DNA of 32,000 bases from Longivirga aurantiaca (GTDB taxonomy: Bacteria > Actinomycetota > Actinomycetes > S36-B12 > CAIYMF01): contig NZ_JBHSTI010000008.1 in NCBI RefSeq assembly GCF_042660085.1, forward strand, positions 1,659,876-1,691,875, given 5' to 3'. The position numbers and the translations under genes were made by a program. The notes under the pieces were generated by a model that worked only from the letters and a program-made list of their open reading frames with translations, searched no databases and was not told the origin of the DNA. The stretch's first letter is position 1; each line of letters begins with the position of its first letter. Positions 3,091 to 32,000 of the stretch are shown here, in pieces.

Positions 3091-3873
3091 CTAACCGCCC
3101 GAGGGGTCGCCCGGAGCCGCCGCGCCCGGCAGCACCGTGTCGCCCGCCGGGGCCGCGTGCGCACCGACGGGACCGGGTGCCCGGCTGCGGCGGGCCGCGA
3201 GCATCAGGCCCACTGCAAGGCAGAGCAGCACGATGCCGGCACCGCCGAGGACGAGCGCCGCAGGCCAGGCGCGGTCGACCTCGAGCGTCACATTGAGGTC
3301 CACGTCCACCCCCGGTGTCGCGTCGGCGCGCATGAGCACGACCGTCGCGCCCTCAGGGATGCGCGCCGTGAGCACCGCTGGCGCGCCCTCGTCCTGTCGC
3401 AGCCAGAACTGCTGGGAGGACGGCGGTGGCGGCTGCTGGGTCCCCGGAACCTGGCGGGTCGTGGTCGCTCCCCCGCTGGTCAGCTCCGCAACCACGTCGT
3501 ACGGGGCACCGGCCAGGTAGATGTCGAGATCGGTGCCGGCCGCGGCACCGAGGAAGACAGGTGAGCCGTCGGCGGACCGGGCGGAGAGGGTGAGCACCCC
3601 TACCCCCTCGGGCACCGGGAGCCCCACCGCGTCGATCTGGAGGCCGTCCACGAGGAGGGCCACACCCGTCGCGCTGGCGCGGGTGGGCGTGGTGGACACG
3701 GTGCCGTCCGGGCCGAACGCCATCCCGACGACGATCCCGCCTGCGAGCAGTGCGCCACCCACGACGGCGGCCGCGACCCCCGACACGACGAACCCTGCAC
3801 GTGCCACGTCGTCACGGTATCCCCGACGGGGCGACGACGACCCCGCGCCACGACGCGGACCGCCCGCGCGCAC
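3091..3873 (-). CDS. Hypothetical membrane protein with N- and C-terminal TM anchors and a central extracytoplasmic domain
   Basis: High GC3 frame. It ends 9 nt upstream of pgsA, so it is probably in the same operon. The start is uncertain: GTG at 3873, or GTG at 3807 just before the first TM segment. I recognise no family. Confidence 0.55.
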   Translation of the reverse strand: MRAGGPRRGAGSSSPRRGYRDDVARAGFVVSGVAAAVVGGALLAGGIVVGMAFGPDGTVSTTPTRASATGVALLVDGLQIDAVGLPVPEGVGVLTLSARSADGSPVFLGAAAGTDLDIYLAGAPYDVVAELTSGGATTTRQVPGTQQPPPPSSQQFWLRQDEGAPAVLTARIPEGATVVLMRADATPGVDVDLNVTLEVDRAWPAALVLGGAGIVLLCLAVGLMLAARRSRAPGPVGAHAAPAGDTVLPGAAAPGDPSGG

Positions 3874-3896
3874 CGGGGACGCGGCATGATCGGCAC

Positions 3897-4184
3897 GTGA
3901 CCGACCAGGAGCCGCTGACCCTCGCGGCGCTCAAGCTGCAATGGATCGACGTGCTCTACGACCTAGAGGCGAACCACCGCACAGCCTGGCTGGCGCTGTT
4001 CGACGGCCGGCTCGCCTCGCTGGAGGACGACGTGCTGGTGCTCGACTTCGTCGATGCCACGAAGATGGCCGGCGTCCACGGGTACGAGCGCGGCTCCAAG
4101 CCCTCGTTCCTCGAGGCGATGAGCGATTCGATCGAACGTGTCACCGGCCGCCGCATCACCGTGACCACCACGCGCGACGTGTGA
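3897..4184 (+). CDS. Small conserved-looking cytoplasmic protein (95 aa). It loosely resembles the C-terminal domain of actinobacterial DnaX.
   Basis: Strong GC3 bias from the GTG at 3897. The sequence LKLQWIDVLYDLEANHRTAWLALFDGRLASLEDDVLVLDF recalls the C-terminal pattern of DnaX. This is from memory only. Confidence 0.55.
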   Translation: MTDQEPLTLAALKLQWIDVLYDLEANHRTAWLALFDGRLASLEDDVLVLDFVDATKMAGVHGYERGSKPSFLEAMSDSIERVTGRRITVTTTRDV

Positions 4185-4220
4185 GCCGGGACGCCGGCGG
4201 GGGGAAGGTCCGGCGTCGAG

Positions 4221-4248
4221 GCAACCTCGGGCGCCCTCCGCACCGTCT
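4221..4248 (+). promoter_or_regulatory. Candidate ECF-type promoter (GCAAC-N18-CGTCT) upstream of the sigma gene
   Basis: AAC at 4223-4225 and CGTCT at 4244-4248, about 35 nt upstream of the ATG at 4282. A GGAGG Shine-Dalgarno lies in between. A similar architecture occurs at 5425-5450. Confidence 0.25.
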
Positions 4249-4281
4249 CTGCTGCGAAGGCGGATCTCACCGGAGGCAGGG

Positions 4282-4788
4282 ATGACGACGGACCACGACG
4301 CGGAGTTCACCGCGTGGGTGGAGCGCACGGCCGCGTCGTTGCGCGGCACGGCGTACCTGATGTGCGGCGACTGGCACGCGGCTGACGACGTGGTGCAGGA
4401 CGCGCTCGTGCGGGTGTACGAGCGTTGGCACCGGATCAGGCCGGAGGCCGCGACGTCGTACGCACGACGGGTCGTCGCGACAGCCACGATCGACCGCGCC
4501 CGGCGGCCGTGGCGGCGCGAGGTGTCCAGCGACGTCCTGCCCGAGGTGACCGCGCTGCGGGAGGACGAGACGCCGTACGACGTCGTCGGCGCCCTCGCGC
4601 AGCTGCCGCCGCGCCAGCGCGCCGTGCTGGTGCTGCGGTTCTTCGACGATCTCGACGTGACCGAGACCGCACGGCTGCTCGGGATCACGCCCGGCACCGT
4701 CAAGAGCGCGACATCGCGCGGGCTCGACAGCCTGCGAATTCTGATGCGAACGCCCGTGCACGCGGGCCTGTCCGAGGAGACACCATGA
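4282..4788 (+). CDS. ECF (sigma-70 family, SigE-like actinobacterial subgroup) RNA polymerase sigma factor
   Basis: Region 2 (AADDVVQDALVRVYERW) and region 4 HTH (LPPRQRAVLVLRFFDDLDVTETARLLGITPGTVKSATSRG). Confidence 0.9.
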   Translation: MTTDHDAEFTAWVERTAASLRGTAYLMCGDWHAADDVVQDALVRVYERWHRIRPEAATSYARRVVATATIDRARRPWRREVSSDVLPEVTALREDETPYDVVGALAQLPPRQRAVLVLRFFDDLDVTETARLLGITPGTVKSATSRGLDSLRILMRTPVHAGLSEETP

Positions 4789-5372
4789 GCGAGAACGACA
4801 TCCGCACCCTGATGGGTTCGGCCGCGAGCGATGCCCCCGCCCGCGACTTCAGCACGCCCGTGATCGCCTCCGCCGCGGCGGCGCGCACCCGTCGCCGCCG
4901 TGCCTGGTACGGCGTCGGCGCCCTCGGTGCCGCGGCGACCGTGACCGTCGTCGCCACGGTCTCGATGGGGCTGCTGGGCAACGACGGCCCGGGAGCGCCG
5001 GTCGCGATCGGCACGCCGTCGTCGTCCGCCCCGGCCATCGACCCCGGTGCGATCTCGCTGCCGACGAGCCTGCCGCTCGGCGAGCTCGTCGGTGTCGTCG
5101 ACAGCGAGCTGCCGTCAGGAACGGCCGTCGGCGAGCTCGGCGTCGACGCCGCGTTCACTCCCGACGGTGCGATCACGCTGCCCCTGACCACGGGCTCCGG
5201 CGCTGCAGAGCTCGCGATCACCGCGACCGCAGCGGGATGCAGCGCCGAGTCGGCCGCCCTCGACGCCGCGACGCTGGACGCCATCTCGGCCGCGGTCTGC
5301 ACCGCGGCGGCGCAGTACCCCAGCCAGCCCGGCACCGTGGTCGACGGCGGGAGCATCGACCCCGCCGCCTGA
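4785..5372 (+). CDS. Putative anti-sigma factor: single-pass membrane protein with an extracytoplasmic Ala/Ser/Pro-rich domain
   Basis: ATGA overlap with the sigma stop. It has a short cytoplasmic N-terminus, RTRRRRAWY followed by a TM segment (GVGALGAAATVTVVATV), and a 130-aa external part with two Cys. There is no HxxxCxxC zinc motif. Confidence 0.6.
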   Translation: MSENDIRTLMGSAASDAPARDFSTPVIASAAAARTRRRRAWYGVGALGAAATVTVVATVSMGLLGNDGPGAPVAIGTPSSSAPAIDPGAISLPTSLPLGELVGVVDSELPSGTAVGELGVDAAFTPDGAITLPLTTGSGAAELAITATAAGCSAESAALDAATLDAISAAVCTAAAQYPSQPGTVVDGGSIDPAA

Positions 5373-5383
5373 CGAGCTCGCGA

Positions 5384-5421
5384 CGAAGGGCCGGGCGGAT
5401 TCCAATCCGCCCGGCCCTTCG
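5384..5421 (+). terminator. Perfect 17-bp stem / 4-nt loop hairpin after the anti-sigma gene
   Basis: CGAAGGGCCGGGCGGAT-TCCA-ATCCGCCCGGCCCTTCG, 12 nt after the stop. There is no U-tract, which is common in high-GC actinobacteria. Confidence 0.7.
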
Positions 5422-5424
5422 CTC

Positions 5425-5450
5425 CGAACGAGGGTTGACCGCACGTCGTC
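5425..5450 (+). promoter_or_regulatory. Candidate ECF-type promoter (CGAAC-N17-CGTC) upstream of the DUF4331 gene
   Basis: AAC at 5427-5429 and CGTC at 5447-5450, about 35 nt upstream of the GTG at 5484 (GGAG Shine-Dalgarno at 5474-5477). It lies directly downstream of the terminator hairpin. Confidence 0.25.
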
Positions 5451-5483
5451 GGGACGCGCGGCAGTCTCACCTCGGAGCCTCCT

Positions 5484-6794
5484 GTGAGCCCAACCCCCCT
5501 GCGCCGTCGTCGGCGCCTGCTCGCCCTGTCCGGCGCTCTCGCCGCCTCCTCGCTCGTGGTGGGTGCAGCAGTCGGACTCGGTTCGTCCACCGCCTCGAGC
5601 CACCGCGAGGCCCCCCTGATCTCGGGGACGCCCAAGCTCGACAACACCGACGTCTACGCGTTCGTGAGCCCGGACAAGCCGGACACCGCGACGATCGTCG
5701 CCAACTTCAACCCGTTCGAGGACCCCGCCGGCGGCCCGAACTTCTACTCGTTCGACCCGAAGGCCAAGTACTACGTCAACATCGACCTCAACGGCGACTC
5801 GAACGCAGACCTCGTCTACAGCTGGCGATTCAAGACCACGGTCCGCAACCCCGGGACGTTCCTCTACAACACGGGCCCGGTCACCCGGCTCGGGGACGCC
5901 GACCTGAACGTGGTCCAGAACTACGACCTCGTCGAGTGGAAGCGCGGCGTCGGCACCCGCGTCGTCGCCAAGGGCCTCTACACGGCGCCCGCCAACGTCG
6001 GCACCGCGTCGATGCCCGACTACGCCTCGCTGCGCACCCAGGCCGCATACACGCGCAACGGCGTCACCACGTTCGCCGGCCAGGCCGATGACCCGTTCGC
6101 CCTCGACCTGCGCGTCTTCAACCTGCTGTACGGCGGCAACCTGAGCGAGGTCGGCAACGACTCGCTCAAGGGCTACAACGTCCAGTCGATCGCCCTCCAG
6201 CTGCCGGTGTCCCAGCTCGGTGGCAAGAAGAACATCATCGGCATCTGGTCCTCGACCAAGAAGGCGACCGCGACAGGCACGTACGTCCAGGTGTCGCGCC
6301 TCGGCATGCCCCTCGTCAACGAGGTCGTCATCCCGCTCAAGGACAAGGACCGGTTCAACGCGTCCAAGCCGTCGAGCGACGTGCAGTTCCTGCCCTACGT
6401 CGTGAAGCCCGAGCTGCCCAAGCTGCTCAACGCCGTGTACGGCCTCCCGGTGCCCAAGGAGCCGCGCAACGACCTCGTGCAGGTGTTCCTGACCGGCGTC
6501 CCCGGCCTCAACCAGCCGAAGAACGTGAAGGCCGCGGAGATGCTGCGCCTCAACCTCACGCCCTTCACCGGTCAGACCTTCAGCAGGCTCGGTGTCATCG
6601 GCGGCGACCTCAACGGCTTCCCGAACGGTCGACGCCTCGCTGACGACGTCCTCGACATCGGTCTCCAGGTCGTGGCCGGCGAGCTCGTGGGCATGCCGAA
6701 CGACCTCGGTGACGGCGTCGATGCCAACGACGTGGCGTTCACCAGCACGTTCCCGTACGTCGCCCTCCCCCACAGCGGCTCGACCGTCCGCTGA
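5484..6794 (+). CDS. Secreted DUF4331-domain protein
   Basis: Arg-rich (Tat-like) signal peptide RRRRRLLALSGALAASSLVVGAAVGLGSSTASS, followed by SHREAPLIS...DNTDVYAF...DPFALDL...SRLGMPLVNEVVIP...NGFPNGRRLADDV, which I recognise as the DUF4331 pattern. Confidence 0.85.
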   Translation: MSPTPLRRRRRLLALSGALAASSLVVGAAVGLGSSTASSHREAPLISGTPKLDNTDVYAFVSPDKPDTATIVANFNPFEDPAGGPNFYSFDPKAKYYVNIDLNGDSNADLVYSWRFKTTVRNPGTFLYNTGPVTRLGDADLNVVQNYDLVEWKRGVGTRVVAKGLYTAPANVGTASMPDYASLRTQAAYTRNGVTTFAGQADDPFALDLRVFNLLYGGNLSEVGNDSLKGYNVQSIALQLPVSQLGGKKNIIGIWSSTKKATATGTYVQVSRLGMPLVNEVVIPLKDKDRFNASKPSSDVQFLPYVVKPELPKLLNAVYGLPVPKEPRNDLVQVFLTGVPGLNQPKNVKAAEMLRLNLTPFTGQTFSRLGVIGGDLNGFPNGRRLADDVLDIGLQVVAGELVGMPNDLGDGVDANDVAFTSTFPYVALPHSGSTVR

Positions 6795-6799
6795 CCAGT

Positions 6800-6829
6800 G
6801 CGGGGCCCCGGCAGCCGCCGGGGCCCCGC
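6800..6829 (+). terminator. Perfect 12-bp GC stem hairpin between the DUF4331 and TPR genes (intra-operon attenuator or partial terminator)
   Basis: GCGGGGCCCCGG-CAGCCG-CCGGGGCCCCGC, starting 6 nt after the DUF4331 stop. Confidence 0.5.
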
Positions 6830-6866
6830 GCCGCACCCGTTCCGTACCAGCCCCGGGAGACGCGCC

Positions 6867-8105
6867 GTGACGACCACCGACCTCCAGCCCCTCGCACCGC
6901 CCGAGCCCGCGCGACGCGGCCGTCGGCGCGTCGCCGCCGTGCTCGTGGGCGCCGTCGCCGTCGCCGGTCTCGTCGGCGCCGGCTCGCTGCTGCCTGCACC
7001 GTCCGCACCGACCCCGACGGCCCAGGCGCCGTCGGGCCCGACGACCACCGTCGAGGGCCTCGCGGCCTATCTGCAGTCGGTGCCCGCGGACTGGCACGGC
7101 TGGTCGAGCCTCGGAGGGCTGCAGCTCGAGCGCGCCCGCTCGACCGGATCGCCGGAGTGGTACGGACGCGCGGAGCAGTCGTTCCGCAGGTCCCTCCAGA
7201 TCCACCCCGACGACAACCCGCCCGCCCTCGCCGGTCTCGCCGCCGTCGACGCCGCGAGGCATGACTTCGCCGCCGCCGAGTCGGGCGCTCGTGCGGCACT
7301 GGCCGTCAATCCGCTCGATGCCACGGCGCAGGCGATCCTCGTCGACTCGCTCACCGAGCTCGGCCGGTACGACGAGTCGCTGGCCGCGGCCCAGCGCCTC
7401 GACGGCACGCACCCCGGGCTCTCGTCGTACACACGCCTGGCGTACCAGGAGGAGCTGCGCGGCGATGTGGCAGAGGCGCTCTCGCTCCTCGCCCTCGCTG
7501 CTGACGATGCCGCCACCCCGTCGCAGGCCGCCTTCGCCCGCTACCAGGAGGGCCTGCTCGCGCTGCAGACCGGCGACGTCGCGCGCGCCGAGCGTTCGTA
7601 CGCCGCTGGGGCCGCGGCAGCGCCGGACGACCTGTCCCTTCTGCATCTGCGGGCTCGGATCGCGGCGGCCCAGGGGCGCGGCGCCATGGCCGCCGACCTC
7701 TACCGCGCGCTCGTGCAGAGGCGGCCGACCGCGGCGCTCGCGGTCGAGGCGGCCGACGTGCTGACCGGGGCGGCCGACGCCCGGGAGAGGGCCGACCTGA
7801 TCGCCCTCGCGCAGGCGCAGCTCGCCGTTAACCGTGCGAACGGTGTGGAGCCCGAGCCGTCCGACATCGTGCTGGAGGCGACGTACGGCGATCCTGCCGC
7901 TGCCCTGCGGATGGCGGAGTCGCTGTGGTCGAGGCAGCAGGGCGTCTACGCGGCCGACGCCTACGCGGTGGCGCTGCACGCCGTCGGCCGCGACGCCGAG
8001 GCGCTGCGGTACGCCGATCGCGCCCTGTCCCTCGGGACGACCACCCCCTCGCTGCATGCGCACCGCGACGCCATCCGCGCAGCGCTGCCCGGCGGTGCGG
8101 CATGA
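6867..8105 (+). CDS. Membrane-anchored tetratricopeptide-repeat (TPR) protein
   Basis: GTG at 6867 with a GGGAGA Shine-Dalgarno. It has an N-terminal RRGRRR motif plus a TM anchor, then repeated Ala-rich helical TPR-like units (for example AEQSFRRSLQIHPDDNPPALAGLA and AESGARAALAVNPLDATAQ). Its stop overlaps the next gene's start (ATGA). Confidence 0.7.
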   Translation: MTTTDLQPLAPPEPARRGRRRVAAVLVGAVAVAGLVGAGSLLPAPSAPTPTAQAPSGPTTTVEGLAAYLQSVPADWHGWSSLGGLQLERARSTGSPEWYGRAEQSFRRSLQIHPDDNPPALAGLAAVDAARHDFAAAESGARAALAVNPLDATAQAILVDSLTELGRYDESLAAAQRLDGTHPGLSSYTRLAYQEELRGDVAEALSLLALAADDAATPSQAAFARYQEGLLALQTGDVARAERSYAAGAAAAPDDLSLLHLRARIAAAQGRGAMAADLYRALVQRRPTAALAVEAADVLTGAADARERADLIALAQAQLAVNRANGVEPEPSDIVLEATYGDPAAALRMAESLWSRQQGVYAADAYAVALHAVGRDAEALRYADRALSLGTTTPSLHAHRDAIRAALPGGAA

Positions 8106-9745
8106 GGACCCGTCGCGCCGTGGTCGCCGCGCTGCTCGTCCCCGTGGCCGTCGTGCTCGCTGCGCCCACGGCGTCGGCGCACCCGCTCGGCAACCTGTCG
8201 GTCAACACGTACGACGGCGTCGTCGTCGCGCCCGACGGTGTCCGCGTCGATCACGTCGAGGACGTGGCCGAGGTGCCCGCGGTCGCGGCGCTGCGGGCGG
8301 CCGACACGGATGTCGATGGGGCCACCTCGCCCACCGAGCTCGGCGCCTGGGCCGGAAGCCGTTGCGCTGCAGCCGCTTCGCGGATCCGCGTGGCCTCCGA
8401 CGGCACGCCCCTCGTCCTCACCGTCCGCACAGCCTCCGCCACGACTGCGGCCGGCCAGGCCGGGCTCGCCACCGTCCGCGTCGAGTGCGACCTCGGCGCC
8501 GACCTCCGCGTGGCCGCACGTACCGCCGTCACCGTGGACGTCGCCCCTCCGACGGATCTCGGGTGGCGCGAGATCACGGTCGCCGGCGACGGCACCACCG
8601 TGGTGTCCGCCGACGTCCCGTCGGCCAGCGTGAGCGGGCGGCTGACGTCGTACCCAGGCGACCTCACGACCTCGCCCGACGAGCGCAGCGCGACGGCCAG
8701 CGTCGAGCCGGGCGGTCCGCGCCTCGCGGCTCCTGCAGCGACTGGCCCCCTCGGCGTGGTCGCCCGCGGCGTCGACGGAGTCACTGCAGCAGTCGAGGGC
8801 CTGGCCACCCGGTCGGGCCCGGTCGCGCTGCTGCTGCTGCTGCTCGGCGGCCTGGTCCTCGGCGCGCTGCACGCGCTCGCCCCCGGCCACGGCAAGACGG
8901 TCGTCGCCCTCGCAGCGCTGGCCGGCCGCGGGGCACGTCGGCGCGAGCTGGCTCGGGCGGCGGGGACCCTCGGCGCGAGCATCACGGTCGCGCACACCGG
9001 GAGCGTGGTGCTCGTCGGCGTCGCGCTCACCGCCTTCGGGGCGGTCGTACCCGCAGCGCTCTTCCCCGCGCTCGCCGTGGTGGCAGGCATGATCGTCGTG
9101 GCGGTCGGCATCGGTCTGCTGCGCGGTCGCAGCGGCGCCCACGTGCACGGTCCCGGCGGCCACACCCACGACCACGACCCCGACCACGAGGCTCACGGTC
9201 ACGGGTATCACCACGGGCACGACGCCCCGCTGCCGCACTCCCCCGCGCCCCGGCAGGAGGCCGCGCTCTCGCGCACCGCGGTGCTGGCCGTCACCGGCAC
9301 GGCGCCGGTCGTGACCGCGCACGACCACGACCATGCGCACAGTGACCACGACCACGACCATGCGCACGATCGTGCGCACGACCATGCGCACAGTGACCAC
9401 GCGGAGCACGACACGGGCACCCGGCGCCGCACGCTCGTGGCCCTCGGCGCGGTCGGCGGTCTCACCCCGAGCCCCACCGCGCTCGTCGTCCTGCTCGGCA
9501 CCCTCGCCGTGGGGCGGCCCGTGGCGGGCCTGCTCGCGGTCCTCGCCTTCGGGATCGGCATGGCCCTGACGCTGGTCGGTGCCGGGCTGCTGGCCGTCGT
9601 GCTGGGCCGGCGCGCTGCGAGCCTCGCGGTCGCGCGCGGGTTGCCGCTCCGGTGGCTGGCGCTGCTGCCGCGGCTCGCGGGCGCGGCCGTCGTCTGCGCC
9701 GGAGCGTTCCTCGCGCTCCGCGGCGTCCTCGACCTCCTGGCCTGA
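8102..9745 (+). CDS. RcnA/NicO-family nickel/cobalt-type transporter fused to a ~270-aa N-terminal secreted domain
   Basis: Signal peptide ending APTASA|HPLGN. The membrane half carries GALHALAPGHGKT and GGLTPSPTALVVLL (compare E. coli RcnA GALHGLEPGHSKT and GGLIPCPAAITVLL, from memory). There are two His/Asp-rich loops. Confidence 0.85.
   Translation: MRTRRAVVAALLVPVAVVLAAPTASAHPLGNLSVNTYDGVVVAPDGVRVDHVEDVAEVPAVAALRAADTDVDGATSPTELGAWAGSRCAAAASRIRVASDGTPLVLTVRTASATTAAGQAGLATVRVECDLGADLRVAARTAVTVDVAPPTDLGWREITVAGDGTTVVSADVPSASVSGRLTSYPGDLTTSPDERSATASVEPGGPRLAAPAATGPLGVVARGVDGVTAAVEGLATRSGPVALLLLLLGGLVLGALHALAPGHGKTVVALAALAGRGARRRELARAAGTLGASITVAHTGSVVLVGVALTAFGAVVPAALFPALAVVAGMIVVAVGIGLLRGRSGAHVHGPGGHTHDHDPDHEAHGHGYHHGHDAPLPHSPAPRQEAALSRTAVLAVTGTAPVVTAHDHDHAHSDHDHDHAHDRAHDHAHSDHAEHDTGTRRRTLVALGAVGGLTPSPTALVVLLGTLAVGRPVAGLLAVLAFGIGMALTLVGAGLLAVVLGRRAASLAVARGLPLRWLALLPRLAGAAVVCAGAFLALRGVLDLLA
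9320..9400 (+). repeat. Imperfect tandem codon repeats encoding the (D/H)-rich loop HDHDHAHSDHDHDHAHDRAHDHAHSDH
   Basis: GACCATGCGCAC occurs three times (9329, 9356, 9380). The 21-mer GACCATGCGCACAGTGACCAC occurs twice (9329-9349 and 9380-9400). Confidence 0.85.
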
Positions 9746-9749
9746 TCGG

Positions 9750-10619
9750 TCAGCCGATCCGGAGGACCGTGAGGTTGTCGCGCGCGTCCTTGCGGTCGTC
9801 GGCGACGGCGATGAGGCCGTCACCGAGGAAGGCCAGGCCCTCGGGCTTGCGGACCTTCTTCGGCAGGGGAAGCGCAGCGGTCACCGACACCGGTTCGCCC
9901 GGCTCGAGGGGCAGCACGAGCTGTGCGAGGCACCGACCCTGGTCCGACAGCACCCACACACCGCCGTCGTGGTCGGGCGCGAGGTCGCTCAGGTCGGTGA
10001 GGGCGTCGGTGCCGACGCCGGTCCACGGCCACCAGGCAAGCGCGACCAGGTCGTCGTCATCCGCCGGGGGTGTCCAGCCCTCGTCGTGGGAGAGCAGAGT
10101 CCCGGCCGAGACTCCTTGGGGCACATGGCCTCTCGGGCCGAACTCCACGAGCCCGGCAGGCTTCTTCTCCTTCGCGACGAGGAGGTGACCGTCGCGCAGC
10201 AGCAGGACGCCCTCCCCGCGAGAAGCGTCCGCCTTCGACCAGCTCGCGTGCAGGTCGACGACCGTGCTCGTGTCGAGGCGGAAGCGCGACACGATCCGGC
10301 GCTGTGCGAGATCGACACCGCCGACCATGGACGTCCCCTCGGTGAGCACCCACACACGGCCCGCGCCGTCGAGAGCCAGGGCCTCGAGCTGGGTCGCCCG
10401 CTCCTCGTACCCGGGCCGCGCGCCGACGTCGTCCGCAGTCACGACCTCGAACTCGCCGGGCACTCCGTCGACCACCGTCGTGACCGCGAAGGCGACCCGG
10501 TCGTCGCCCAGGGCGAGCAGCAGGATGCCGCCGTCGGTACGCCGTGCCGTCAGCCCTGACACCTCGGGCAGGGGCACCGAGTGGGTCGCGATCCGCTCCA
10601 TGCACGCATCGTGGCCCAC
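9750..10619 (-). CDS. Hypothetical protein, probably a beta-propeller (possibly SdiA-regulated/YjiK-like or phytase-like)
   Basis: Good GC3 frame. It has repeated beta-strand-rich segments and a PEVSGL motif reminiscent of the EPSGL motif in SdiA-regulated domain proteins (weak recollection). The start is either the GTG at 10619 or the ATG at 10601. Confidence 0.55.
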   Translation of the reverse strand: MGHDACMERIATHSVPLPEVSGLTARRTDGGILLLALGDDRVAFAVTTVVDGVPGEFEVVTADDVGARPGYEERATQLEALALDGAGRVWVLTEGTSMVGGVDLAQRRIVSRFRLDTSTVVDLHASWSKADASRGEGVLLLRDGHLLVAKEKKPAGLVEFGPRGHVPQGVSAGTLLSHDEGWTPPADDDDLVALAWWPWTGVGTDALTDLSDLAPDHDGGVWVLSDQGRCLAQLVLPLEPGEPVSVTAALPLPKKVRKPEGLAFLGDGLIAVADDRKDARDNLTVLRIG

Positions 10620-10659
10620 CAGGGGGGATCGTGGCGGCCCTCCGGGACGTTGACCCTCC

Positions 10660-11388
10660 GTGGACCCCTTCGCTGCACCGCACGGAACCCCGCTCCAGCG
10701 CTACGAAAGGGCCAGCCGCCGGCCGCTGGTCGCCGCGGCGATCGCCTTCGTGGTCGCGTACGCGCTGCCCGTGCTCCTGCCCGCCATGCCCCGGATGGAC
10801 GCCGACCTCCTCGACCTGCTGGGTGCGCTCCTGTGGGCGCTGTTCCTCGTCGACCTGGGCGTCCGCGCGGTGCTGTCCGGCCGCCCGGGCCGCTGGCTCC
10901 TTCGGCACCCGATCGACGTCGTCCTCGTCCTGCTGCCGGCGCTGCGGCCGCTGCGCGAGCTGCGCGGCCTGACCGCCGACGCGTACACCTCGGGGACTCG
11001 TGCCGCGGTCGGGCGCGCGCTCGCCGCCGCGCTCGTGGGTGTCGCCTACCTCATGCTGGTCGGCGCCGTGGCTGTGCTCGACGCCGAGCGGTCGGCCGCG
11101 TCGTCGCACATCACGTCCTTCGGCGACGCCCTCTGGTGGGCAGCGGTGACGGTCACGACGGTCGGGTACGGCGACACCTACCCCGTCACGGTCGTCGGAC
11201 GGCTCGTGGCTTTCGCTCTGATGCTCGTCGGGATAAGCCTGTTGGGCGTGCTCACGGCGTCGGTCGCCGCCTGGTTCGTCGGCCGCACCCGTGAGGTCGA
11301 GAACGAGGTGCTGGTCGAGCTCCGCGCTCTGCGCACCGAGGTGGCCGACCTCCGGGCGGCAGTGGACCGCGCCTCATCCGCGAGCTGA
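10660..11388 (+). CDS. Potassium channel (ion-transport family, Kv-like with an S4-like Arg segment)
   Basis: Selectivity filter TVTTVGYGD, an S4-like LRPLRELRGL, multiple TM segments, and a C-terminal coiled coil. Confidence 0.9.
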   Translation: MDPFAAPHGTPLQRYERASRRPLVAAAIAFVVAYALPVLLPAMPRMDADLLDLLGALLWALFLVDLGVRAVLSGRPGRWLLRHPIDVVLVLLPALRPLRELRGLTADAYTSGTRAAVGRALAAALVGVAYLMLVGAVAVLDAERSAASSHITSFGDALWWAAVTVTTVGYGDTYPVTVVGRLVAFALMLVGISLLGVLTASVAAWFVGRTREVENEVLVELRALRTEVADLRAAVDRASSAS

Positions 11389-11397
11389 CGGCGGAGG

Positions 11398-11997
11398 TCA
11401 GAGCGTGTCGAGGGCGTTGGCTGCGATGCGGTCCGCGATCCCGCTACGCATCAGGGCCGCGGCCGCGCTGTCCGGCTTGCGCGCCGCCTCAGCCGCGAAG
11501 CACGCCGAGAACTCAGGCCCGATACCGAGCCGCGGGTAGCGCGCGACCACCTCGGTGCGCAGCTCGTCCGGCCACCAGGACGTGTTGCGGCCGCTGATAT
11601 CGAGGCCGGTGGCGATCTCGAGGAGGTGGCCCTCGGGGTCCGCCTCGGGATCGACCGAGTCCCACATGTGCCGCTCGATGATCTCGGCGGCGCGTACGCC
11701 GCGCTCGGGCGCCCACCCGGCTCCGGCCGCGAAGACGCGGGCCACGTCGCCCCCCGCACGCTCGAACGGGACCGCATGGCTGTCGAACGAGGCCACGAGC
11801 CCGATGTCGTGCAGCATCGCCGAGACGTAGAGCAGCTCGGCGTCGTAGGCGATGCCGTGCACGTCGCCGTACGCCGCCGCCCAGAGGAACGAGCGAACAC
11901 TGTGATTCGCGAGCGCGGGCGATGCGAAGGTCGTGACCACCCAGAGGGCACGGTCGGCGGCGTCTGTGGCGGGGCGGGCGAGGTCGTCGAGGCGCAT
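11398..11997 (-). CDS. HD-domain metal-dependent phosphohydrolase-superfamily protein
   Basis: NHSVRSF...MLHDIGL (the H...HD motif). The ATG at 11997 gives 199 aa. It is convergent with the K+ channel gene, with 9 nt between the stops. Confidence 0.8.
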   Translation of the reverse strand: MRLDDLARPATDAADRALWVVTTFASPALANHSVRSFLWAAAYGDVHGIAYDAELLYVSAMLHDIGLVASFDSHAVPFERAGGDVARVFAAGAGWAPERGVRAAEIIERHMWDSVDPEADPEGHLLEIATGLDISGRNTSWWPDELRTEVVARYPRLGIGPEFSACFAAEAARKPDSAAAALMRSGIADRIAANALDTL

Positions 11998-12270
11998 GCC
12001 TCGATGCTCGCAGCCCGTGCGGCGCCCTCCCACCCGCATGCGGACATGGACGGAAGGGTTCGCGCCAGGTGCGCATCGGCGGACGATCGTGGCGCCACGT
12101 GCTCAGCCCGAGACGCGGCGGAGCCCGACGTCGGTCAGCGCGTGCGAGCTCCGTGCCGATCCCCAGGGCTGACAGGATCCGTCGCAGCGGAGCGCCAGGT
12201 GCGACAGCGGGCGCCTTCGGCGCGGCGGTCGAGCCGCGCGCGAAGAACTCCTCCCAAATCAGAGGGAGCC

Positions 12271-12317
12271 CGACAGACGATGAAGGCCGGCCGCAAGCGG
12301 CCGGCCTTCATCGTCTG

Positions 12318-12320
<3 letters not shown>
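12271..12320 (-). terminator. Perfect 23-bp stem / 4-nt loop hairpin immediately 3' of tRNA-Pro. The last 3 bp of the stem overlap the tRNA 3' end.
   Basis: CGACAGACGATGAAGGCCGGCCG-CAAG-CGGCCGGCCTTCATCGTCTGTCG. Confidence 0.7.
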
Positions 12321-12391
<71 letters not shown>

Positions 12392-21810: not shown

Positions 21811-21958
21811 AAGCAGACTCGTCTCTGTCGCGATAGAAATCCTGATCGCCTTGGCGATGGAGCGTCACCCTAGGCGCGTCCGCGCGCCGGAGGCAAGACG
21901 CGGGCGTGACCGGTCAGCCGTCCGGGGGCATCCGGGCGCGGGCGAGCGCCGCGAAACC

Positions 21959-21970
21959 GCAGGTCAGAGG
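21959..21970. repeat. GCAGGTCAGAGG 12-mer, 4 nt beyond the xerD stop
   Basis: Exact match to 15671-15682 and 20405-20416. The match to the tyrA copy extends to GCAGGTCAGAGGC. Confidence 0.6.
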
Positions 21971-21974
21971 CCTG

Positions 21975-22961
21975 TCAGGACCGAGCGCGGGGATGCGCGA
22001 GCGCGTAGACCTCGCGCAGCCTGTCGACCGTCACCAGGGTGTAGATCTGGGTCGTCGTCACCGAGGCGTGCCCCAGGAGCTCCTGCACCACGCGCACGTC
22101 GGCCCCGCCGTCGAGCAGGTGCGTGGCGAAGCTGTGCCGCAGCGTGTGCGGCGAGACGTCCGCGGTGACCCCCGCGCGCTCGACCGCCGCGGCGAGCACC
22201 GTCCAGGCGCTCTGCCGCGTGAGCCGGCCCCCGCGGGCGTTGAGGAACAGCGCCGGGCTGCCCGTGCCGGCAGCCACGAGCACCGGACGGCCGCGCACGA
22301 GATAGGCCTCCACGGCTGCGACCGCCATCCGCCCGACGGGCACGAGGCGCTCCTTGGAGCCCTTCCCGCGCAGCAGCACAGAGGCGGAGTCGAGGTCGAG
22401 GTCGTCGACGTCGAGGCCGATCGCCTCGGAGATGCGCGCACCGGTGCCGTACAGCACCTCGAGCAGCGCCCGGTCGCGCAGCTCGCGGGCCGCGCCCTCT
22501 CCCCCGGCGGCGGCGAGGATGGCCTCGATCTCGGCGACCGAGATGGCCTTGGGCAGCTTGCGGGTCTGGCTGGGCGGCCGCACCTCCTTGCCCGGGTCCG
22601 AGGTGGTGAGGCCCTCCCGCGCGGCGAACCGGTGGAAGCCGCGCACGGCAACCACCGTGCGGCCCGCGCTCGAGGCGGCCAGGGGCCTGTGCTCGGCGTC
22701 GCCGGCTCGGAGCGCGAGGAGGAAGTCGCTGATGTCGGTCTCGGTCACCTGGTCGGGCTCGGTGATCCCGCGGGACGACGTCCAGGCGAGGTAGCGGGCG
22801 AGGTCGCGGCGGTAGGCGACCAGCGAGTTGGGGGCGAGACCGCGCTCCACCGCCAGGTGGTCGAGGTAGAGGGTGACGGCGCGGGCGAGGGCGGACGGCC
22901 GGGCCGGGGCCGCCTCGGTGACGTCGCCGACGGACTCACCGCCGTCCTGCTGGTCGCTCAC
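21975..22961 (-). CDS. xerD: Site-specific tyrosine recombinase XerD
   Basis: The N-terminal SAM-like domain ([23 protein letters not shown]) and catalytic residues (ARISE...[12 protein letters not shown]...[14 protein letters not shown]) are present. The GTG at 22961 is preferred because codons upstream of it are poor. Confidence 0.9.
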
Positions 22962-23118
22962 ATCACGACCGTACCTGACATAACGGACGACGGGCCGCGA
23001 CCACCCGTCCCCAGTGCGCGGCGGTGCGCGTGTCGTCCACATCGCGAACGGGCCCGAGCGTGGCCCGGTCGCAGCCTCCGGTCACGGTCCTCGCCACACC
23101 CCGACCCGAGGAGACCCC

Positions 23119-23901
23119 GTGAGCGACGCCCCTACACCGGACTCACCCGCCTGCCGTGCACCCCGACGACTGCGGCGCCCGCTGCTGATCGCCTCGGCCC
23201 TCGCCGCCGCCTTCCTCGTCACCATCGACGCGGCGTCGTTCGCCGCGACCGGCTCGGGCCTCGTCCTCGGCAGGGTCAACACCGCGTCTGCACCCACGAC
23301 CATCAGCAACGACGGCGCCGGCCCCGCCCTGCGGCTGACGACGTCGAGCAGCACCTCGGCGCCGTTCGCCACCAACGCCACCGGCAAGGTCGTCAACCTC
23401 CACGCGGACAAGCTCGACGGCATGGACGCCGCCGCCCTCGTCGCCGCCGCTCGGACGGCGGTGGACGCCGCGAAGCTCCAGGGCCGCACCGCGGCCGAGA
23501 TCGCCGCTTTGGCGCCGGTGCCGCGCTTCACCTTCGTGCGCACCAGCATCCGCCAGACCTCGAACCCGGGATGGCTGCCCGGAGCGCTGTCGTCGGACGG
23601 TGCTGCTCCGGGCACGTACCGCCTCACCGGAACGCTCATGGTGCCGTGCTCCCCCAGCAGCGCCTCGGGCTACCTGCTGGCACTTGCGGTCGTACGAAGC
23701 GCGATCGACGTGGACCCGGTCATCCTGCAGCGTCCGGTTGCCGCGACGCTCTGCGGCAAGCCCATCCCGATCGCCGAGACCGTCACGATGGACTCGGGCG
23801 CGCGGCTGCTGCTGCGGGTGCACGACATCGACGCCGGCGACCTCGTGAGCCTGCCGCTCTCCTTCGATCTGCGCGCCGTGCCCATCGGAGCAGCGCTCTG
23901 A
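23119..23901 (+). CDS. Secreted hypothetical protein (260 aa) with an Arg-rich signal peptide
   Basis: GAGGAG Shine-Dalgarno 5 nt before the GTG at 23119. The signal is RRLRRPLLIASALAAAFLVTIDAASFAA. An internal segment, VVNLHADKLDGMDAAAL, recalls a motif seen in tail-fibre-like secreted proteins (recollection only). Confidence 0.65.
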   Translation: MSDAPTPDSPACRAPRRLRRPLLIASALAAAFLVTIDAASFAATGSGLVLGRVNTASAPTTISNDGAGPALRLTTSSSTSAPFATNATGKVVNLHADKLDGMDAAALVAAARTAVDAAKLQGRTAAEIAALAPVPRFTFVRTSIRQTSNPGWLPGALSSDGAAPGTYRLTGTLMVPCSPSSASGYLLALAVVRSAIDVDPVILQRPVAATLCGKPIPIAETVTMDSGARLLLRVHDIDAGDLVSLPLSFDLRAVPIGAAL

Positions 23902-23912
23902 GCGGCGATGCG

Positions 23913-23948
23913 CGACGGGCCGGCTCCCGTGAGGGAGCCGGCCCGTCG
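23913..23948. terminator. Bidirectional terminator hairpin between convergent genes (16-bp stem, GTGA loop)
   Basis: CGACGGGCCGGCTCCC-GTGA-GGGAGCCGGCCCGTCG. Confidence 0.7.
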
Positions 23949-23964
23949 TCGGGCGTGATGCGGG

Positions 23965-25083
23965 TCAGGCGAGGACCGACTCCAGCGTGGTGGCGGGGAG
24001 GTCGGGGAACGCCTCGGCCACGGCGCCGTAGGTGATCTGGCCGGCGTGGGTGTTGAGGCCGAGCGCGAGCGACGTGTCGTCCGCCAGCGCCTTCTTCCAG
24101 CCCTTGTTCGCGAGCGCCACGGCGTACGGCAGCGTCACGTTGGTGAGCGCGTACGTCGAGGTGTTCGGCACCGCACCCGGCATGTTCGCGACGCAGTAGA
24201 AGACCGAGTTGTGCACGGCGTACGTCGGGTCCGCGTGCGTGGTGGGGCGCGAGTCCTCGAAGCAGCCGCCCTGGTCGATGGCGATGTCGACGAGGACCGA
24301 TCCCGGCTTCATCCGCGACACGAGCTCGTTGCTGATGAGCTTGGGGGCCTTGGCGCCGGGGACGAGCACCGCGCCGATGACCAGGTCGGCGTCGAGGACG
24401 GCGCGCTCGATCTCGAACGAGTTCGACGCGATCGTCTGCACGTGACCCTGGTAGATCGCGTCCATCTGGCGGAGGCGGGCGATGTTGAGGTCGAGCAGGA
24501 GCACCTCGGCCTGCATGCCGAGCGCGATCGCCGCGGCGTTCTGGCCGGAGACGCCACCACCGAGGACGACGACCTTCGCGGCGTAGGTGCCGGACACGCC
24601 GCCCATGAGCACGCCACGGCCGCCGTTGGCGCGCATGAGCGCGTGGGCACCGACCTGCGGGGCGAGCCGGCCGGCCACCTCGGACATCGGCGCGAGCAGC
24701 GGCAGCGAGCGGTCGGGCAGCTCGACGGTCTCGTAGGCGATCGCGGTGACGCCGTTGTTGATGAGCGCCTCGGTGCAGGCGCGGCCCGCGGCGAGGTGCA
24801 GGTAGGTGAAGAGGGTCTGGCCCGAGCGCATGCGGTGGTACTCCTCCGCGACGGGCTCCTTCACCTTGAGGATGAGGTCGCCGGTCGCCCAGACGTCGTC
24901 CGCCGTGGGGAGGATGGTCGCGCCCGCGGCGACGTACTCGTCGTCGGTGATCGAGGAGCCGACACCTGCGTCGTGCTCGATGTAGACCTCGTGGCCGTTC
25001 TTCACGAGCTCGAACACGCCGGCCGGGGTGATGGCCACGCGGTACTCGTGGTTCTTGACCTCGCGGGGGATTCCGACCTTCAC
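23965..25083 (-). CDS. ald: L-alanine dehydrogenase
   Basis: [23 protein letters not shown]..., the NAD-binding motif [14 protein letters not shown], and the C-terminal [16 protein letters not shown]. The GTG at 25083 is preceded by GGAGG. Confidence 0.95.
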
Positions 25084-25698: not shown

Positions 25699-26403
25699 TC
25701 AGGAGGAGCGGTAGATCCGGGCGCGGCCTGATCCGGCGACCCGCTCCCGCGCGGGCCACGCGGCGTCGGCCGCGCGCAGCGTCGACCAGCCGGCCGAGCG
25801 CGCCGCGAGCGCGGCAAGGGTGGCCGCGACCGTCAGCGGTGCGGTGAGCCGACCGGCGAGCACCGCGAGCACAGCCTCCTCGAGCGGCACCCACGCGACC
25901 GGCAGGTCGCGCTCCTCGCCGTCCCCCGGCGGTCGGCCGCCCGGCGCGGGCGCGAGGTCGCGCGCGAGGTAGCACCGGATCGTCTCGCTCGATCCGCCCG
26001 GCGAGTTCTCCAGATCCACGAGCACGTCCCAGCGCGCGGCGACGAGCCCCGCCTCCTCGACGAGCTCTCGGGCGGCGCCCGCCTGCGGCGACTCGTCGGC
26101 GACGTCGAGCAGCCCGGCGACCGGCTCCCACAGCGACATGCCGACGGGGTGGCGGTACTGCCGGATGAGGAGCACGCGGTCGTGGTCGTCGAGGGCGAGG
26201 ACGCCGACGGCGCCCGGGTGCTGCACGAACTCGCGACGGACGGTCTGCCCGTCACCGAGGTCGACGGTGTCGCGGCGCAGGTCCCACACCATCCCGGCGT
26301 GGATCAGCTCGGTCTCGAGGAGGGCGCGCTCGTCGACCTCGTCGGTCAGCGACGACGGGTCGCCCGGCCACGTCGGCGGCAGGACGTACGGGGCCTCGCT
26401 CAC
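25699..26403 (-). CDS. Nudix hydrolase (ADP-ribose pyrophosphatase-like)
   Basis: Nudix box ESPQAGAARELVEEAGL. The GTG at 26403 is 4 nt after the pyrG stop. The stop is 1 nt from the convergent lrp stop. Confidence 0.85.
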   Translation of the reverse strand: MSEAPYVLPPTWPGDPSSLTDEVDERALLETELIHAGMVWDLRRDTVDLGDGQTVRREFVQHPGAVGVLALDDHDRVLLIRQYRHPVGMSLWEPVAGLLDVADESPQAGAARELVEEAGLVAARWDVLVDLENSPGGSSETIRCYLARDLAPAPGGRPPGDGEERDLPVAWVPLEEAVLAVLAGRLTAPLTVAATLAALAARSAGWSTLRAADAAWPARERVAGSGRARIYRSS

Positions 26404-26407
26404 GCCG

Positions 26408-28066
<1,659 letters not shown>

Positions 28067-28246
28067 GGGGGTCCAGGCTATCAGGGGGCCGCCGACGGTC
28101 CGACCGTCTCCGGGACCGACGGCGTGTCTGCGCCCGGAACGGTCGCGGGGAGCGCGTCGGGGGCCGGGGTGGACGTGCCCGTTGGGGTCGGTGTGACGGA
28201 TGTGCCGGTCGGAGCGGGTGACGCGGAGGTCGTCGTCGGACCGGGC

Positions 28247-28278
28247 GTCGGCGAGTCGGCGTGTCGGCGTGTCGGCGA
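28247..28278. repeat. Four tandem copies of the octamer GTCGGCG(A/T) in the pyrG upstream region
   Basis: GTCGGCGA GTCGGCGT GTCGGCGT GTCGGCGA, contiguous. An 8-nt period is incompatible with codon periodicity. Confidence 0.85.
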
Positions 28279-28438
28279 GCATCCCGCCGACCTGCAGCGT
28301 CGCCCGCGCGCAGTACCGCGCCATGTACGGCGTGACGGTCCGCGGCATGCGACGAGCGCGCGGGCGGGACGACCGAGCATCCGCCGAGCTACGAGACGGC
28401 GGGGCGGTCGGTCATGCGCCGTCCGGTGCATGGTGGGG

Positions 28439-31932: not shown

Positions 31933-32000
31933 CCGCGCGTGCCTCGCCAGCCGTCGACGGGGAGGGCGAACTTCGCGACGAGCCGGTCGGTGAACGGCTT
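31929..32000 (-). CDS. nadK: NAD kinase, C-terminal 23 codons only (truncated by the window edge)
   Basis: It translates to KPFTDRLVAKFALPVDGWRGTRG*, matching the conserved PpnK C-terminus (PFTDRLV.KF.LPV.GWRG, from memory). GTGA overlap with the recN start. Confidence 0.7.
   Translation of the reverse strand, partial: KPFTDRLVAKFALPVDGWRGTRG

Follow-up and report, generated by a model that had tools for sequence, protein, structure and literature searches.

A conserved DUF4331-TPR-permease operon of Longivirga aurantiaca: a candidate extracytoplasmic relay for a divalent transition metal

We report the analysis of a three-gene operon (positions 5484-9745, plus strand) in a 32 kb stretch of DNA from Longivirga aurantiaca (Sporichthyaceae, Actinomycetota), referred to here as the window. 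The operon encodes a secreted protein of the DUF4331 family, a membrane-anchored tetratricopeptide repeat (TPR) protein and a NicO-like permease with an extracytoplasmic N-terminal domain, and it is preceded by a promoter motif of the SigK type. In our view these three proteins may act together outside the cytoplasm as a relay for capturing a divalent transition metal and bringing it into the cell, an interpretation to which we assign a probability of roughly 0.5; the substrate is most likely Ni(II) or Cu(II), with Co(II) possible. The signal or anchor sequences predicted in all three proteins and the invariant histidine predicted at or near the N-terminus of both secreted parts would fit a role in metal handling. 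A module of this kind had been suggested by an earlier inspection of the window (the sequence-only reading), whose author knew of no experimental description of one; likewise, no paper describing such a module was found in the literature searched.

The three-gene arrangement is more than chance. Scanning one genome per species with a DUF4331 alignment as the pattern gave at least 593 confirmed stretches, of which the best 80 loci were kept. Six-frame open reading frames (ORFs) of these loci were searched with the window proteins, and the 70 loci with at least 3.6 kb of downstream sequence were counted. All three genes are present in 64 of the 70: the order DUF4331, TPR, NicO-like, all in the same direction, is found in 61, and in three the TPR-permease pair is divergent. 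A further four loci carry DUF4331 and TPR only and two carry DUF4331 only, the TPR gene thus accompanying DUF4331 in 68/70. The loci are mainly from Actinomycetota, with Chloroflexia and Acidimicrobiia bins included. A reverse look-up from NicO-like proteins with 41-44% identity to that of the window found DUF4331 and TPR genes adjacent in three of three contigs. The suggested association of DUF4331, TPR and a Ni/Co-type permease therefore holds in both search directions and in several phyla. The DUF4331 family itself is large (at least 8000 clusters at 90% identity match it), and a tblastn search with DUF4331 against annotated plasmids and chromids returned 53 records, including Proteobacteria, Bacteroidota and Cyanobacteria, in which most alignments begin at His40.

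Some of these distant modules carry a different permease. In Nostoc the order is DUF4331, TPR and a 496-residue permease that starts ADA|HPLGN and has the motif HALSPGHGK and a His-rich loop. In Lichenicola, Marinobacter and Pseudoalteromonas the permease is instead a HupE_UreJ_2 protein (E = 4e-36 to 3e-44). The gene order is DUF4331, TPR, HupE_UreJ_2 in Lichenicola and the same in Marinobacter apart from a small ORF after DUF4331; in Pseudoalteromonas it is ECF (extracytoplasmic function) sigma factor, RskA_C anti-sigma factor, DUF4331, Ig-like protein, TPR, HupE_UreJ_2. All three HupE_UreJ_2 permeases have an ectodomain of about 150 residues with a histidine directly after the signal peptide. 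Two unrelated Ni-type permease families fill one slot, each with an N-terminal-His ectodomain, and this exchange is the strongest argument for metal handling by the module.

Other arrangements were seen among the plasmid records. In Rhizobium a short DUF4331 relative without a signal peptide has a HoxN/NixA NiCoT gene immediately after it. The short subfamily to which it belongs (about 340 residues, no signal peptide, starting MSHH) is represented on the Rhizobium bangladeshense plasmid (locus L096, 4992-7226) and in loci L099, L100 and L101; on Mycobacterium, Methylocystis and Streptomyces plasmids the short form has unrelated neighbours. On an Adhaeribacter swui plasmid (L094, 2116-8724) an 806-residue DUF4331 protein and a TPR protein are encoded divergently from a TonB-dependent receptor, with no inner-membrane permease annotated adjacent.

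The permease of the window begins with a signal peptide (8102..8179) that ends A-S-A before His27. The sequence-only reading had assigned it an extra N-terminal secreted domain of about 270 residues; the domain is present but comprises residues 27-243 (8180..8830) and begins with an invariant histidine. Among 50 close and 101 more diverse homologues the junction A-H-P-L-G(-N) varies little if at all, and cleavage exposing His27 is predicted. Across the 101 diverse representatives His27 and Glu57 are invariant and Asp54 is nearly so, and the Cys88/Cys129 pair and a GWRE motif are conserved; these two cysteines, both in the ectodomain, are the only conserved ones of the permease. In the AlphaFold2 model residues 30-210 have predicted local distance difference test (pLDDT) values of about 90-98. 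The model shows strands at 34-43 and 46-55, helices at 57-67 and 77-94 and then further strands, an immunoglobulin-like beta-sandwich in which helices come between strands 2 and 3. The ectodomain matches 1906 representative clusters, with the match starting at about residue 25-30 in most of them, and has no Pfam family match.

When the model was compared with the Protein Data Bank (PDB) using Foldseek, a single credible match came out on top: entry 9gce, in which the Ang-1 domain of a HupE/UreJ-2 protein has copper bound (E = 1.3e-3, probability 1.00, 17% identity). The Zn-binding protein PA4063 ranked lower. Ang-1 and Ang-2, the anglerases, were described in 2025 as N-terminal-His, mono-histidine-brace domains fused to HupE/UreJ-2 permeases (PMC12537917). 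They bind Cu(II) with a Kd of about 60-75 nM, Ang-1 also binds Ni(II) with a Kd of 220 nM, and in the authors' proposal these domains capture metal and pass it on to the permease (PMC12537917). The window permease shares with these proteins (PMC12537917; PDB 9GCE) the signal peptide, the invariant histidine, the beta-sandwich with helices after strand 2, the linker and a polytopic Ni-type permease, and with Ang-2 (His1/Asp33) a conserved acidic residue about 30 residues after His1. The proteobacterial modules themselves use HupE/UreJ-2 fusions, and their ectodomains show a weak relationship to Ang-2 (hhalign probability 67%). In contrast, the window permease is NicO/DsbD_2-like and not HupE/UreJ-2 (it has no match to PF13795), there is no significant sequence similarity, and its ectodomain is larger (about 215 residues) and has the conserved Cys pair and GWRE motif. 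We therefore treat the modelled ectodomain as an analogue of the anglerases in structure and architecture; it may be a distant homologue, but we do not count it among the Ang-1 or Ang-2 domains. The main text of PMC12537917, in which CopC is cited, gives neither DUF4331, TPR nor ECF/SigK as partners.

The remainder of the permease (8831..9745) is a six-helix NicO/RcnA-like domain with the motifs HALAPGHGK and GGLTPSPTA. These motifs, as HALAPGHGK and GGL(T/V)PSP(T/S)A, are conserved in the 50 close and 101 diverse homologues, and we take the His motif of transmembrane helix (TM) 1, the Gly/Pro/Ser motif of TM4 and a His-rich TM3-TM4 loop to be defining for the NicO/RcnA family. The NicO/RcnA signatures that the sequence-only reading had recognized are thus real, and 41 of the 50 homologues match NicO (PF03824) at E <= 1e-3 (best E = 6.8e-16), but the window protein itself stays below the NicO cut-off (17.2 bits against a gathering score of 27.7) and below that of the RcnA-type model discussed further on. 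The Nostoc orthologue passes the NicO cut-off with 44.3 bits. That reading had also counted two His/Asp-rich loops; the two tracts belong to a single loop, which joins TM3 to TM4 (residues 341-440, 9122..9421). Of its 100 residues 25 are His and 13 are Asp, and it is disordered in the AlphaFold2 model. The loop is predicted to be cytoplasmic because the N-terminal domain is outside and an Arg-rich stretch follows TM1. A PDB sequence search with the permease gave only low-complexity matches of the His loop to ZnT transporters. Members of the family are at present annotated as 'Sulfite exporter TauE/SafE', 'UreH domain' or 'nickel transporter'.

The permease domain also passes the Pfam threshold for DsbD_2 (PF13386; 28.1 bits against 24.9), 44 of the 50 homologues match this model, and SigK regulons are known to include DipZ. 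One could accordingly imagine a DsbD/CcdA-like thiol-disulfide conduit for the oxidative folding of DUF4331, analogous to DipZ of the mycobacterial SigK regulon. We consider this very unlikely: no invariant or near-invariant cysteine occurs in the membrane domain of the 50 close and 101 diverse homologues, where the conserved residues are His, Gly, Pro, Ser and Lys; the DUF4331 protein of the window has no cysteine at all; and the His-rich loop, together with the NicO matches in 41/50 homologues, indicates cation transport.

The DUF4331 protein (5484..6794, 436 residues) matches PF14224 over the full profile (positions 1-421 of 421; E = 1e-147, 493 bits against a cut-off of 27), in agreement with the family assignment made from the sequence. 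Its sequence, like that of the permease, is 100% identical to a protein known from L. aurantiaca. Residues 1-37 are predicted to form a signal peptide, and the predicted mature N-terminus is Ser38-Ser39-His40 (nucleotides 5595-5603), where the X-X-His arrangement would constitute an amino-terminal Cu(II)- and Ni(II)-binding (ATCUN) site; NH2-X-X-His is the classical motif of this kind for Cu(II)/Ni(II). Ala37, Ser38 and His40 are invariant across four phyla (A-S-x-H; A|S-D-H in Nostoc), and the pattern [AS]-x-A|S fits the small-residue rule at -3/-1. Signal-peptide cleavage just ahead of the histidine, the alternative, would put Asp at -1 in Nostoc, an unfavourable residue at this position. 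A Tat-like RR motif is present in some homologues, not in all. Further invariant Asp, Asn, Glu and Arg residues include those of GRR-x-DD-x-x-D, and a D-x-D/N-G-D loop resembles a Ca site. The window protein contains two His, no Cys and four Met. Its AlphaFold2 model (pLDDT 75, predicted template-modelling score 0.80) has a beta-sandwich followed by a helical part, and neither a sequence search nor a fold comparison found a relative in the PDB.

In most homologues (for example P0018, P0023, P0056 and P0072) DUF4331 continues for an extra 70-130 residues at the C-terminus, where a low-complexity linker containing a short L-x-G-G motif leads into a hydrophobic helix and a tail of RRRR; the Longivirga clade (432-443 residues) is without this extension. 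A sortase signal was considered here and rejected: L-x-G-G differs from both LPXTG and LAXTG, and 30-40 residues separate it from the hydrophobic segment that follows. We read the extension as a plain membrane anchor, by which most DUF4331 homologues would stay at the membrane surface.

A different explanation is that DUF4331 itself is the effector, a secreted or tethered metalloprotein or enzyme. The permease would export its metal cofactor, which the ectodomain with His at position 1 and the TPR protein would put in place outside the cell, much as accessory genes stand behind a structural gene. Of the three components DUF4331 is the best conserved, with E values of 1e-117 to 1e-174; those for TPR are near 1e-50 and those for the ectodomain near 1e-40. 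It is encoded first in the operon, ahead of a hairpin that could lower downstream expression, and together with TPR it persists in some genomes without the permease. In the Rhodobacterales it resembles an exoprotein: on Sulfitobacter and Jannaschia plasmids (L092, L095) it lies among type II secretion genes, beside prepilin peptidase and GspD, F, J and K, with no TPR or permease annotated nearby, and it may be secreted cargo there. The nearest curated transporter model, moreover, is that of the exporter RcnA. Against this stand the HupE/UreJ-2 partners in Proteobacteria and the NiCoT partner in Rhizobium, which belong to known importer families, and DUF4331 itself has no recognizable catalytic fold or PDB relative and a single invariant histidine. 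We regard such a maturation role as unlikely on present evidence, yet as a serious rival to the import relay.

The 412-residue TPR protein (6867..8105) matches TPR_14 (31 bits against 23.5) and TPR_2 (30.1 against 27) above the Pfam cut-offs and has a hydrophobic span at residues 20-45, which agrees with its earlier description as membrane-anchored; the TPR domain is predicted to be extracytoplasmic, behind this N-terminal transmembrane span. The start at GTG 6867 is more plausible than the alternative at 6798 in view of GGAG at 6856-6859, 7 nt before the GTG. The gene is ATGA-coupled to that of the permease, as had been noted, with an overlap at 8102-8105. Between the DUF4331 and TPR genes lies a hairpin (6798..6831; free energy -38.9 kcal/mol, z = -3.89, with 0/200 shuffles as stable). 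Judged by its position, this may be an intra-operon attenuator or mRNA stabilizer, and DUF4331 could thereby be made in excess over its partners.

The promoter motif of the operon, CAATCC-N15-CCGAAC (5403..5429, plus strand), is the single match in the window, where 0.01 would be expected by chance. The predicted transcription start is close to 5436, some 47 nt ahead of GTG 5484. The general form, CAATCC-N15-17-CCGAA[CT], was derived by enumerating gapped motifs upstream of DUF4331 genes. Its strict version occurs 48 times in 1.43 Mb, mostly 190-270 nt before the SSHREAP codons; other strict copies are upstream of SigK genes, with loci L037 and L080 having two each. With at most one mismatch and at equal distance, it is found upstream of DUF4331 in 46/84 loci, compared with 19/2702 random windows (0.7%). 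The motif is shared by two relatives (L085, a close one at 84% identity, and L086, at 71% identity) and by L005, all three without an adjacent SigK gene. The SigK consensus is reported as CCATCC / CCGAAT, in agreement with this form. A related motif, GCATCC-N15-C(C/T)CG(T/A)A(T/C), was seen 64-92 nt upstream of the DUF4331 start in two proteobacterial loci (L091, 5859-5885, and L093, 4837-4863); it has two mismatches to the actinobacterial form and hints that the promoter type may be conserved across phyla. No AT-rich box of the Zur/Nur kind was apparent upstream of DUF4331 on inspection by eye of this GC-rich stretch, for which no formal scan was made.

The sigma factors found beside the module point the same way. 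One ECF family (at least 40% identity, single linkage) of 48 sequences adjoins it in more than 40 loci. Its members score 282 and 271 bits against the NCBIfam SigK model (NF007228, cut-off 226), and their partner is an RskA anti-sigma factor; the Pseudoalteromonas module likewise has an ECF sigma factor with an RskA_C anti-sigma factor. The module-linked SigK gene is transcribed divergently in Streptomyces; in Actinomadura it lies downstream of the module, and in L037 and L080 upstream of it in the same direction. In Tenggerimyces the promoter motif also precedes a fasciclin-RskA-SigK cassette. Within 17 kb of Tenggerimyces flavus (L003, 1-2196 and 13073-15328) this cassette, with a thioredoxin and a DsbD-like gene, is accompanied by a DUF4394 gene beside another ECF sigma factor and a zf-HC2 anti-sigma factor, so that four ECF sigma matches surround one module. 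The sites that SigK binds are reported to be strongly conserved across Actinobacteria, and the inducing signal of SigK is unknown (PMC7509140).

The sequence-only reading had instead looked to the sigma/anti-sigma pair immediately upstream as the possible regulator. The first gene (4282..4788, 168 residues) encodes an ECF sigma factor of the SigE family, with Sigma70_r2 and Sigma70_r4_2 matches, TIGR02983 above its NCBIfam cut-off (159.1 bits against 141.55) and TIGR02937 at E = 1.4e-19; only regions 2 and 4 are present, as in ECF sigma factors. The second (4785..5372), which overlaps the first in an ATGA, encodes a single-pass membrane protein with one hydrophobic span (residues 43-65). It has no Pfam or NCBIfam match, and its putative role as an anti-sigma factor is deduced from gene position only. 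The motif CAACC-N17-CGTCT (4222..4248, plus strand) upstream of the sigma gene has one match in the window against 0.15 expected by chance, and both its boxes are conserved in L085; it is probably the autoregulatory promoter of this sigma factor, distinct from that of the module. The hairpin noted 3' of 5372 is real and strong (5378..5427; -42.9 kcal/mol, z = -7.08, 0/200 shuffles as stable) and stands, terminator-like, at the end of the sigma/anti-sigma unit. The -35 box of the next promoter (CAATCC, 5403-5408) falls within its 3' arm, an overlap that is not conserved in L085, where a different hairpin lies further upstream. The hairpin has no U tail and is not called by a consensus terminator scan. 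Consensus scans of 3800-10000 for sigma-70 promoters and intrinsic terminators found nothing, an outcome to be expected with promoters of the ECF type and with actinobacterial hairpins that have no U tail.

Control of the three-gene operon by this pair (4282-5372) would be in keeping with its adjacent and co-directional position, with its conservation alongside the three genes in L085 and with a loose AAC...CGTC pattern upstream of DUF4331. The sigma factor, however, lies outside the module-linked SigK cluster (about 28% identity; TIGR02983 and not NF007228), whereas it is SigK-family members that stand beside the module in more than 40 other loci. Its own promoter differs from that of the operon, the two units are set apart by a strong hairpin, no sigma gene lies near the three genes in L086, and the pair was found in none of the 80 surveyed loci. 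We consider such control improbable. ECF control as such is retained, in the form of the SigK-type promoter, as is the co-occurrence of ECF sigma factors with the module. We conclude, from the motifs and gene families described, that the three genes would constitute a separate transcription unit of a SigK-type regulon; the SigE-family pair, with its own different promoter and the terminator-like hairpin between the units, is most likely an unrelated neighbour.

Taken together, these features suggest the following scheme for the relay. DUF4331 would be exported and its signal peptide cut after Ala37, leaving NH2-Ser-Ser-His as an ATCUN-type site that could bind metal outside the cell. The membrane-anchored TPR protein would hold DUF4331 at the membrane beside the permease, and the metal would be handed to the N-terminal histidine of the permease ectodomain, at a mono-histidine-brace site of the anglerase type with Asp54/Glu57. 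The NicO-like six-helix domain would then move it inward to the cytoplasmic His/Asp-rich loop. A SigK/RskA-type pair, not next door in the L. aurantiaca genome, would switch the operon on. We infer the cleavage sites, the binding and identity of the metal, the direction of transport, the contacts between the proteins and the acting sigma factor alike.

We favour import on two grounds: the partners found in place of the permease, HupE/UreJ and NiCoT, are importers, HupE and NiCoT being established for Ni, and the anglerases offer a precedent. The contrary possibility is that the permease is an RcnA-like Ni/Co efflux pump, with DUF4331 and TPR as RcnB-like modulators and ECF induction by metal excess, as with CnrH. 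The domain has the six-helix NicO-type arrangement and the His-rich TM3-TM4 loop in common with E. coli RcnA, in each case with a co-transcribed extracytoplasmic accessory protein, and its N-terminal half matches the NCBIfam RcnA-type model PRK10019 at E = 7e-13. ECF-controlled Ni/Co efflux is also known, as CnrH/CnrYX (cited in PMC7826278). The PRK10019 score of 48.4 bits, however, is far below the cut-off of 195, E. coli RcnA has no ectodomain, and neither DUF4331 nor TPR is related to RcnB. Control of RcnA lies with the repressor RcnR, not with an ECF sigma factor. The N-terminal-His capture domains and the HupE/NiCoT partners indicate acquisition, and a large secreted protein with a high-affinity motif at its N-terminus has no obvious use for efflux. 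We therefore favour import as the likely direction and think detoxification a rather remote prospect, though, like maturation, a serious rival.

Several observations weigh against the import relay. The closest curated transporter model is of the RcnA efflux type, and transport could be outward. The Foldseek match to 9gce has a modest template-modelling score of 0.47 over the target, and by hhalign the ectodomain reaches a probability of only 19% against Ang-1 (39 columns) and 0.1% against Ang-2; with these small alignments Ang-1 and Ang-2 themselves score 0.3% against each other. ATCUN sites release metal slowly, and the cleavage after Ala37 that would create one is a prediction. DUF4331 is large and better conserved than its partners, with one invariant histidine and no cysteine, a pattern that looks more enzyme- or receptor-like than that of a simple metal shuttle. 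In Actinoplanes and a few other loci DUF4331 and TPR occur without an adjacent permease, which is therefore not obligatory. Finally, there is no SigK gene in the window; no Longivirga sequence was among the best 120 matches to a module-linked SigK query, a result that is uninformative.

The permease-free Actinoplanes loci have a feature of their own. In L072 (10373-12462) and L081 (10453-12486) DUF4331 is followed by an exported protein of about 140 residues with the motif F-x-P/D-G-x-C-R-x-A-A-x-x-V-L and then by SigK and an anti-sigma factor; a similar small ORF follows a lone DUF4331 gene in L059 (10417-10794).

Two other known systems bear comparison with the operon. CopC-CopD and YcnI-YcnJ also pair or fuse an N-terminal-His extracytoplasmic Cu(II) domain with a permease thought to import, but their folds and permease families are unrelated, and they have neither DUF4331 or TPR nor SigK-type control. 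The resemblance to the mycobacterial SigK-RskA regulon (mpt70/mpt83, dipZ) lies in module-linked sigma factors that pass the SigK model and pair with RskA, in a promoter of the form found before the Tenggerimyces cassette, and in a set of secreted or anchored proteins with an ectodomain-bearing membrane protein of the LysE superfamily. The mycobacterial regulon has other target genes, and it differs from the window further in that the latter lacks a SigK gene.

Within the window, the five plus-strand ORFs (4282-9745) are all present at the expected coordinates, in accordance with the five co-directional genes first described. Minus-strand housekeeping genes flank them on both sides, DUF881 upstream and Der, an acyltransferase, prephenate dehydrogenase and ScpB downstream; the downstream block is separated from the permease gene by three genes and a tRNA. 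These are a phytase-like/SdiA-regulated beta-propeller protein (9750-10619, minus strand), a K+-channel-type protein (10660-11388, plus strand), a 213-residue ORF without a Pfam match (11398-12039) and tRNA-Pro(GGG) (12317-12391). The stretch 9750-12391 is variable, with a DUF6326 gene in its place in L085, which keeps all five genes, the sigma/anti-sigma pair included, in the same place. Directly upstream of the sigma gene is a small ORF (3750-4184, plus strand) whose conserved part is about 3890-4184 and whose L085 counterpart has 97 residues; it has a weak DnaX_C-like match only (E = 0.038). Two long plus-strand ORFs, 26138-31993 (1951 residues) and 21906-24035 (709 residues), overlap with long ORFs of the minus strand and lack a Pfam match at E <= 1e-5; probably they are not genes but antisense artefacts caused by the high G+C.

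The Ni/Co-type permease, the N-terminal-His capture domain and ECF control are each of a known kind. What appears to be new is the three-component organization with DUF4331 and TPR, the anglerase architecture built on a NicO-type permease, the exchange of permeases across phyla, the invariant Ser-X-His end of DUF4331 and the SigK-type control. DUF4331/PF14224 is not mentioned in the main text of any paper in the literature searched, and is named twice only, in a neighbour-count table of the PMC12537917 source data.

These results may be extended, tentatively and with considerable doubt, to a general proposal: that DUF4331 is a cross-phylum capture family of the ATCUN type, that the TPR protein is the adaptor through which Ni(II)/Cu(II) passes to at least two anglerase-type permease families, and that SigK/RskA senses metal status. 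If this were true, a role would be assigned to the large DUF4331 family, the anglerase concept of 2025 would be placed within a larger conserved three-component system, and two unrelated Ni-type permease families would have independently gained N-terminal-His capture domains in one genetic setting. The analysis also links a branch of SigK/RskA paralogues to a concrete target operon, for which metal limitation is an obvious candidate signal; a branch of the SigK family would thereby obtain, for the first time, a defined signal and a place in physiology.

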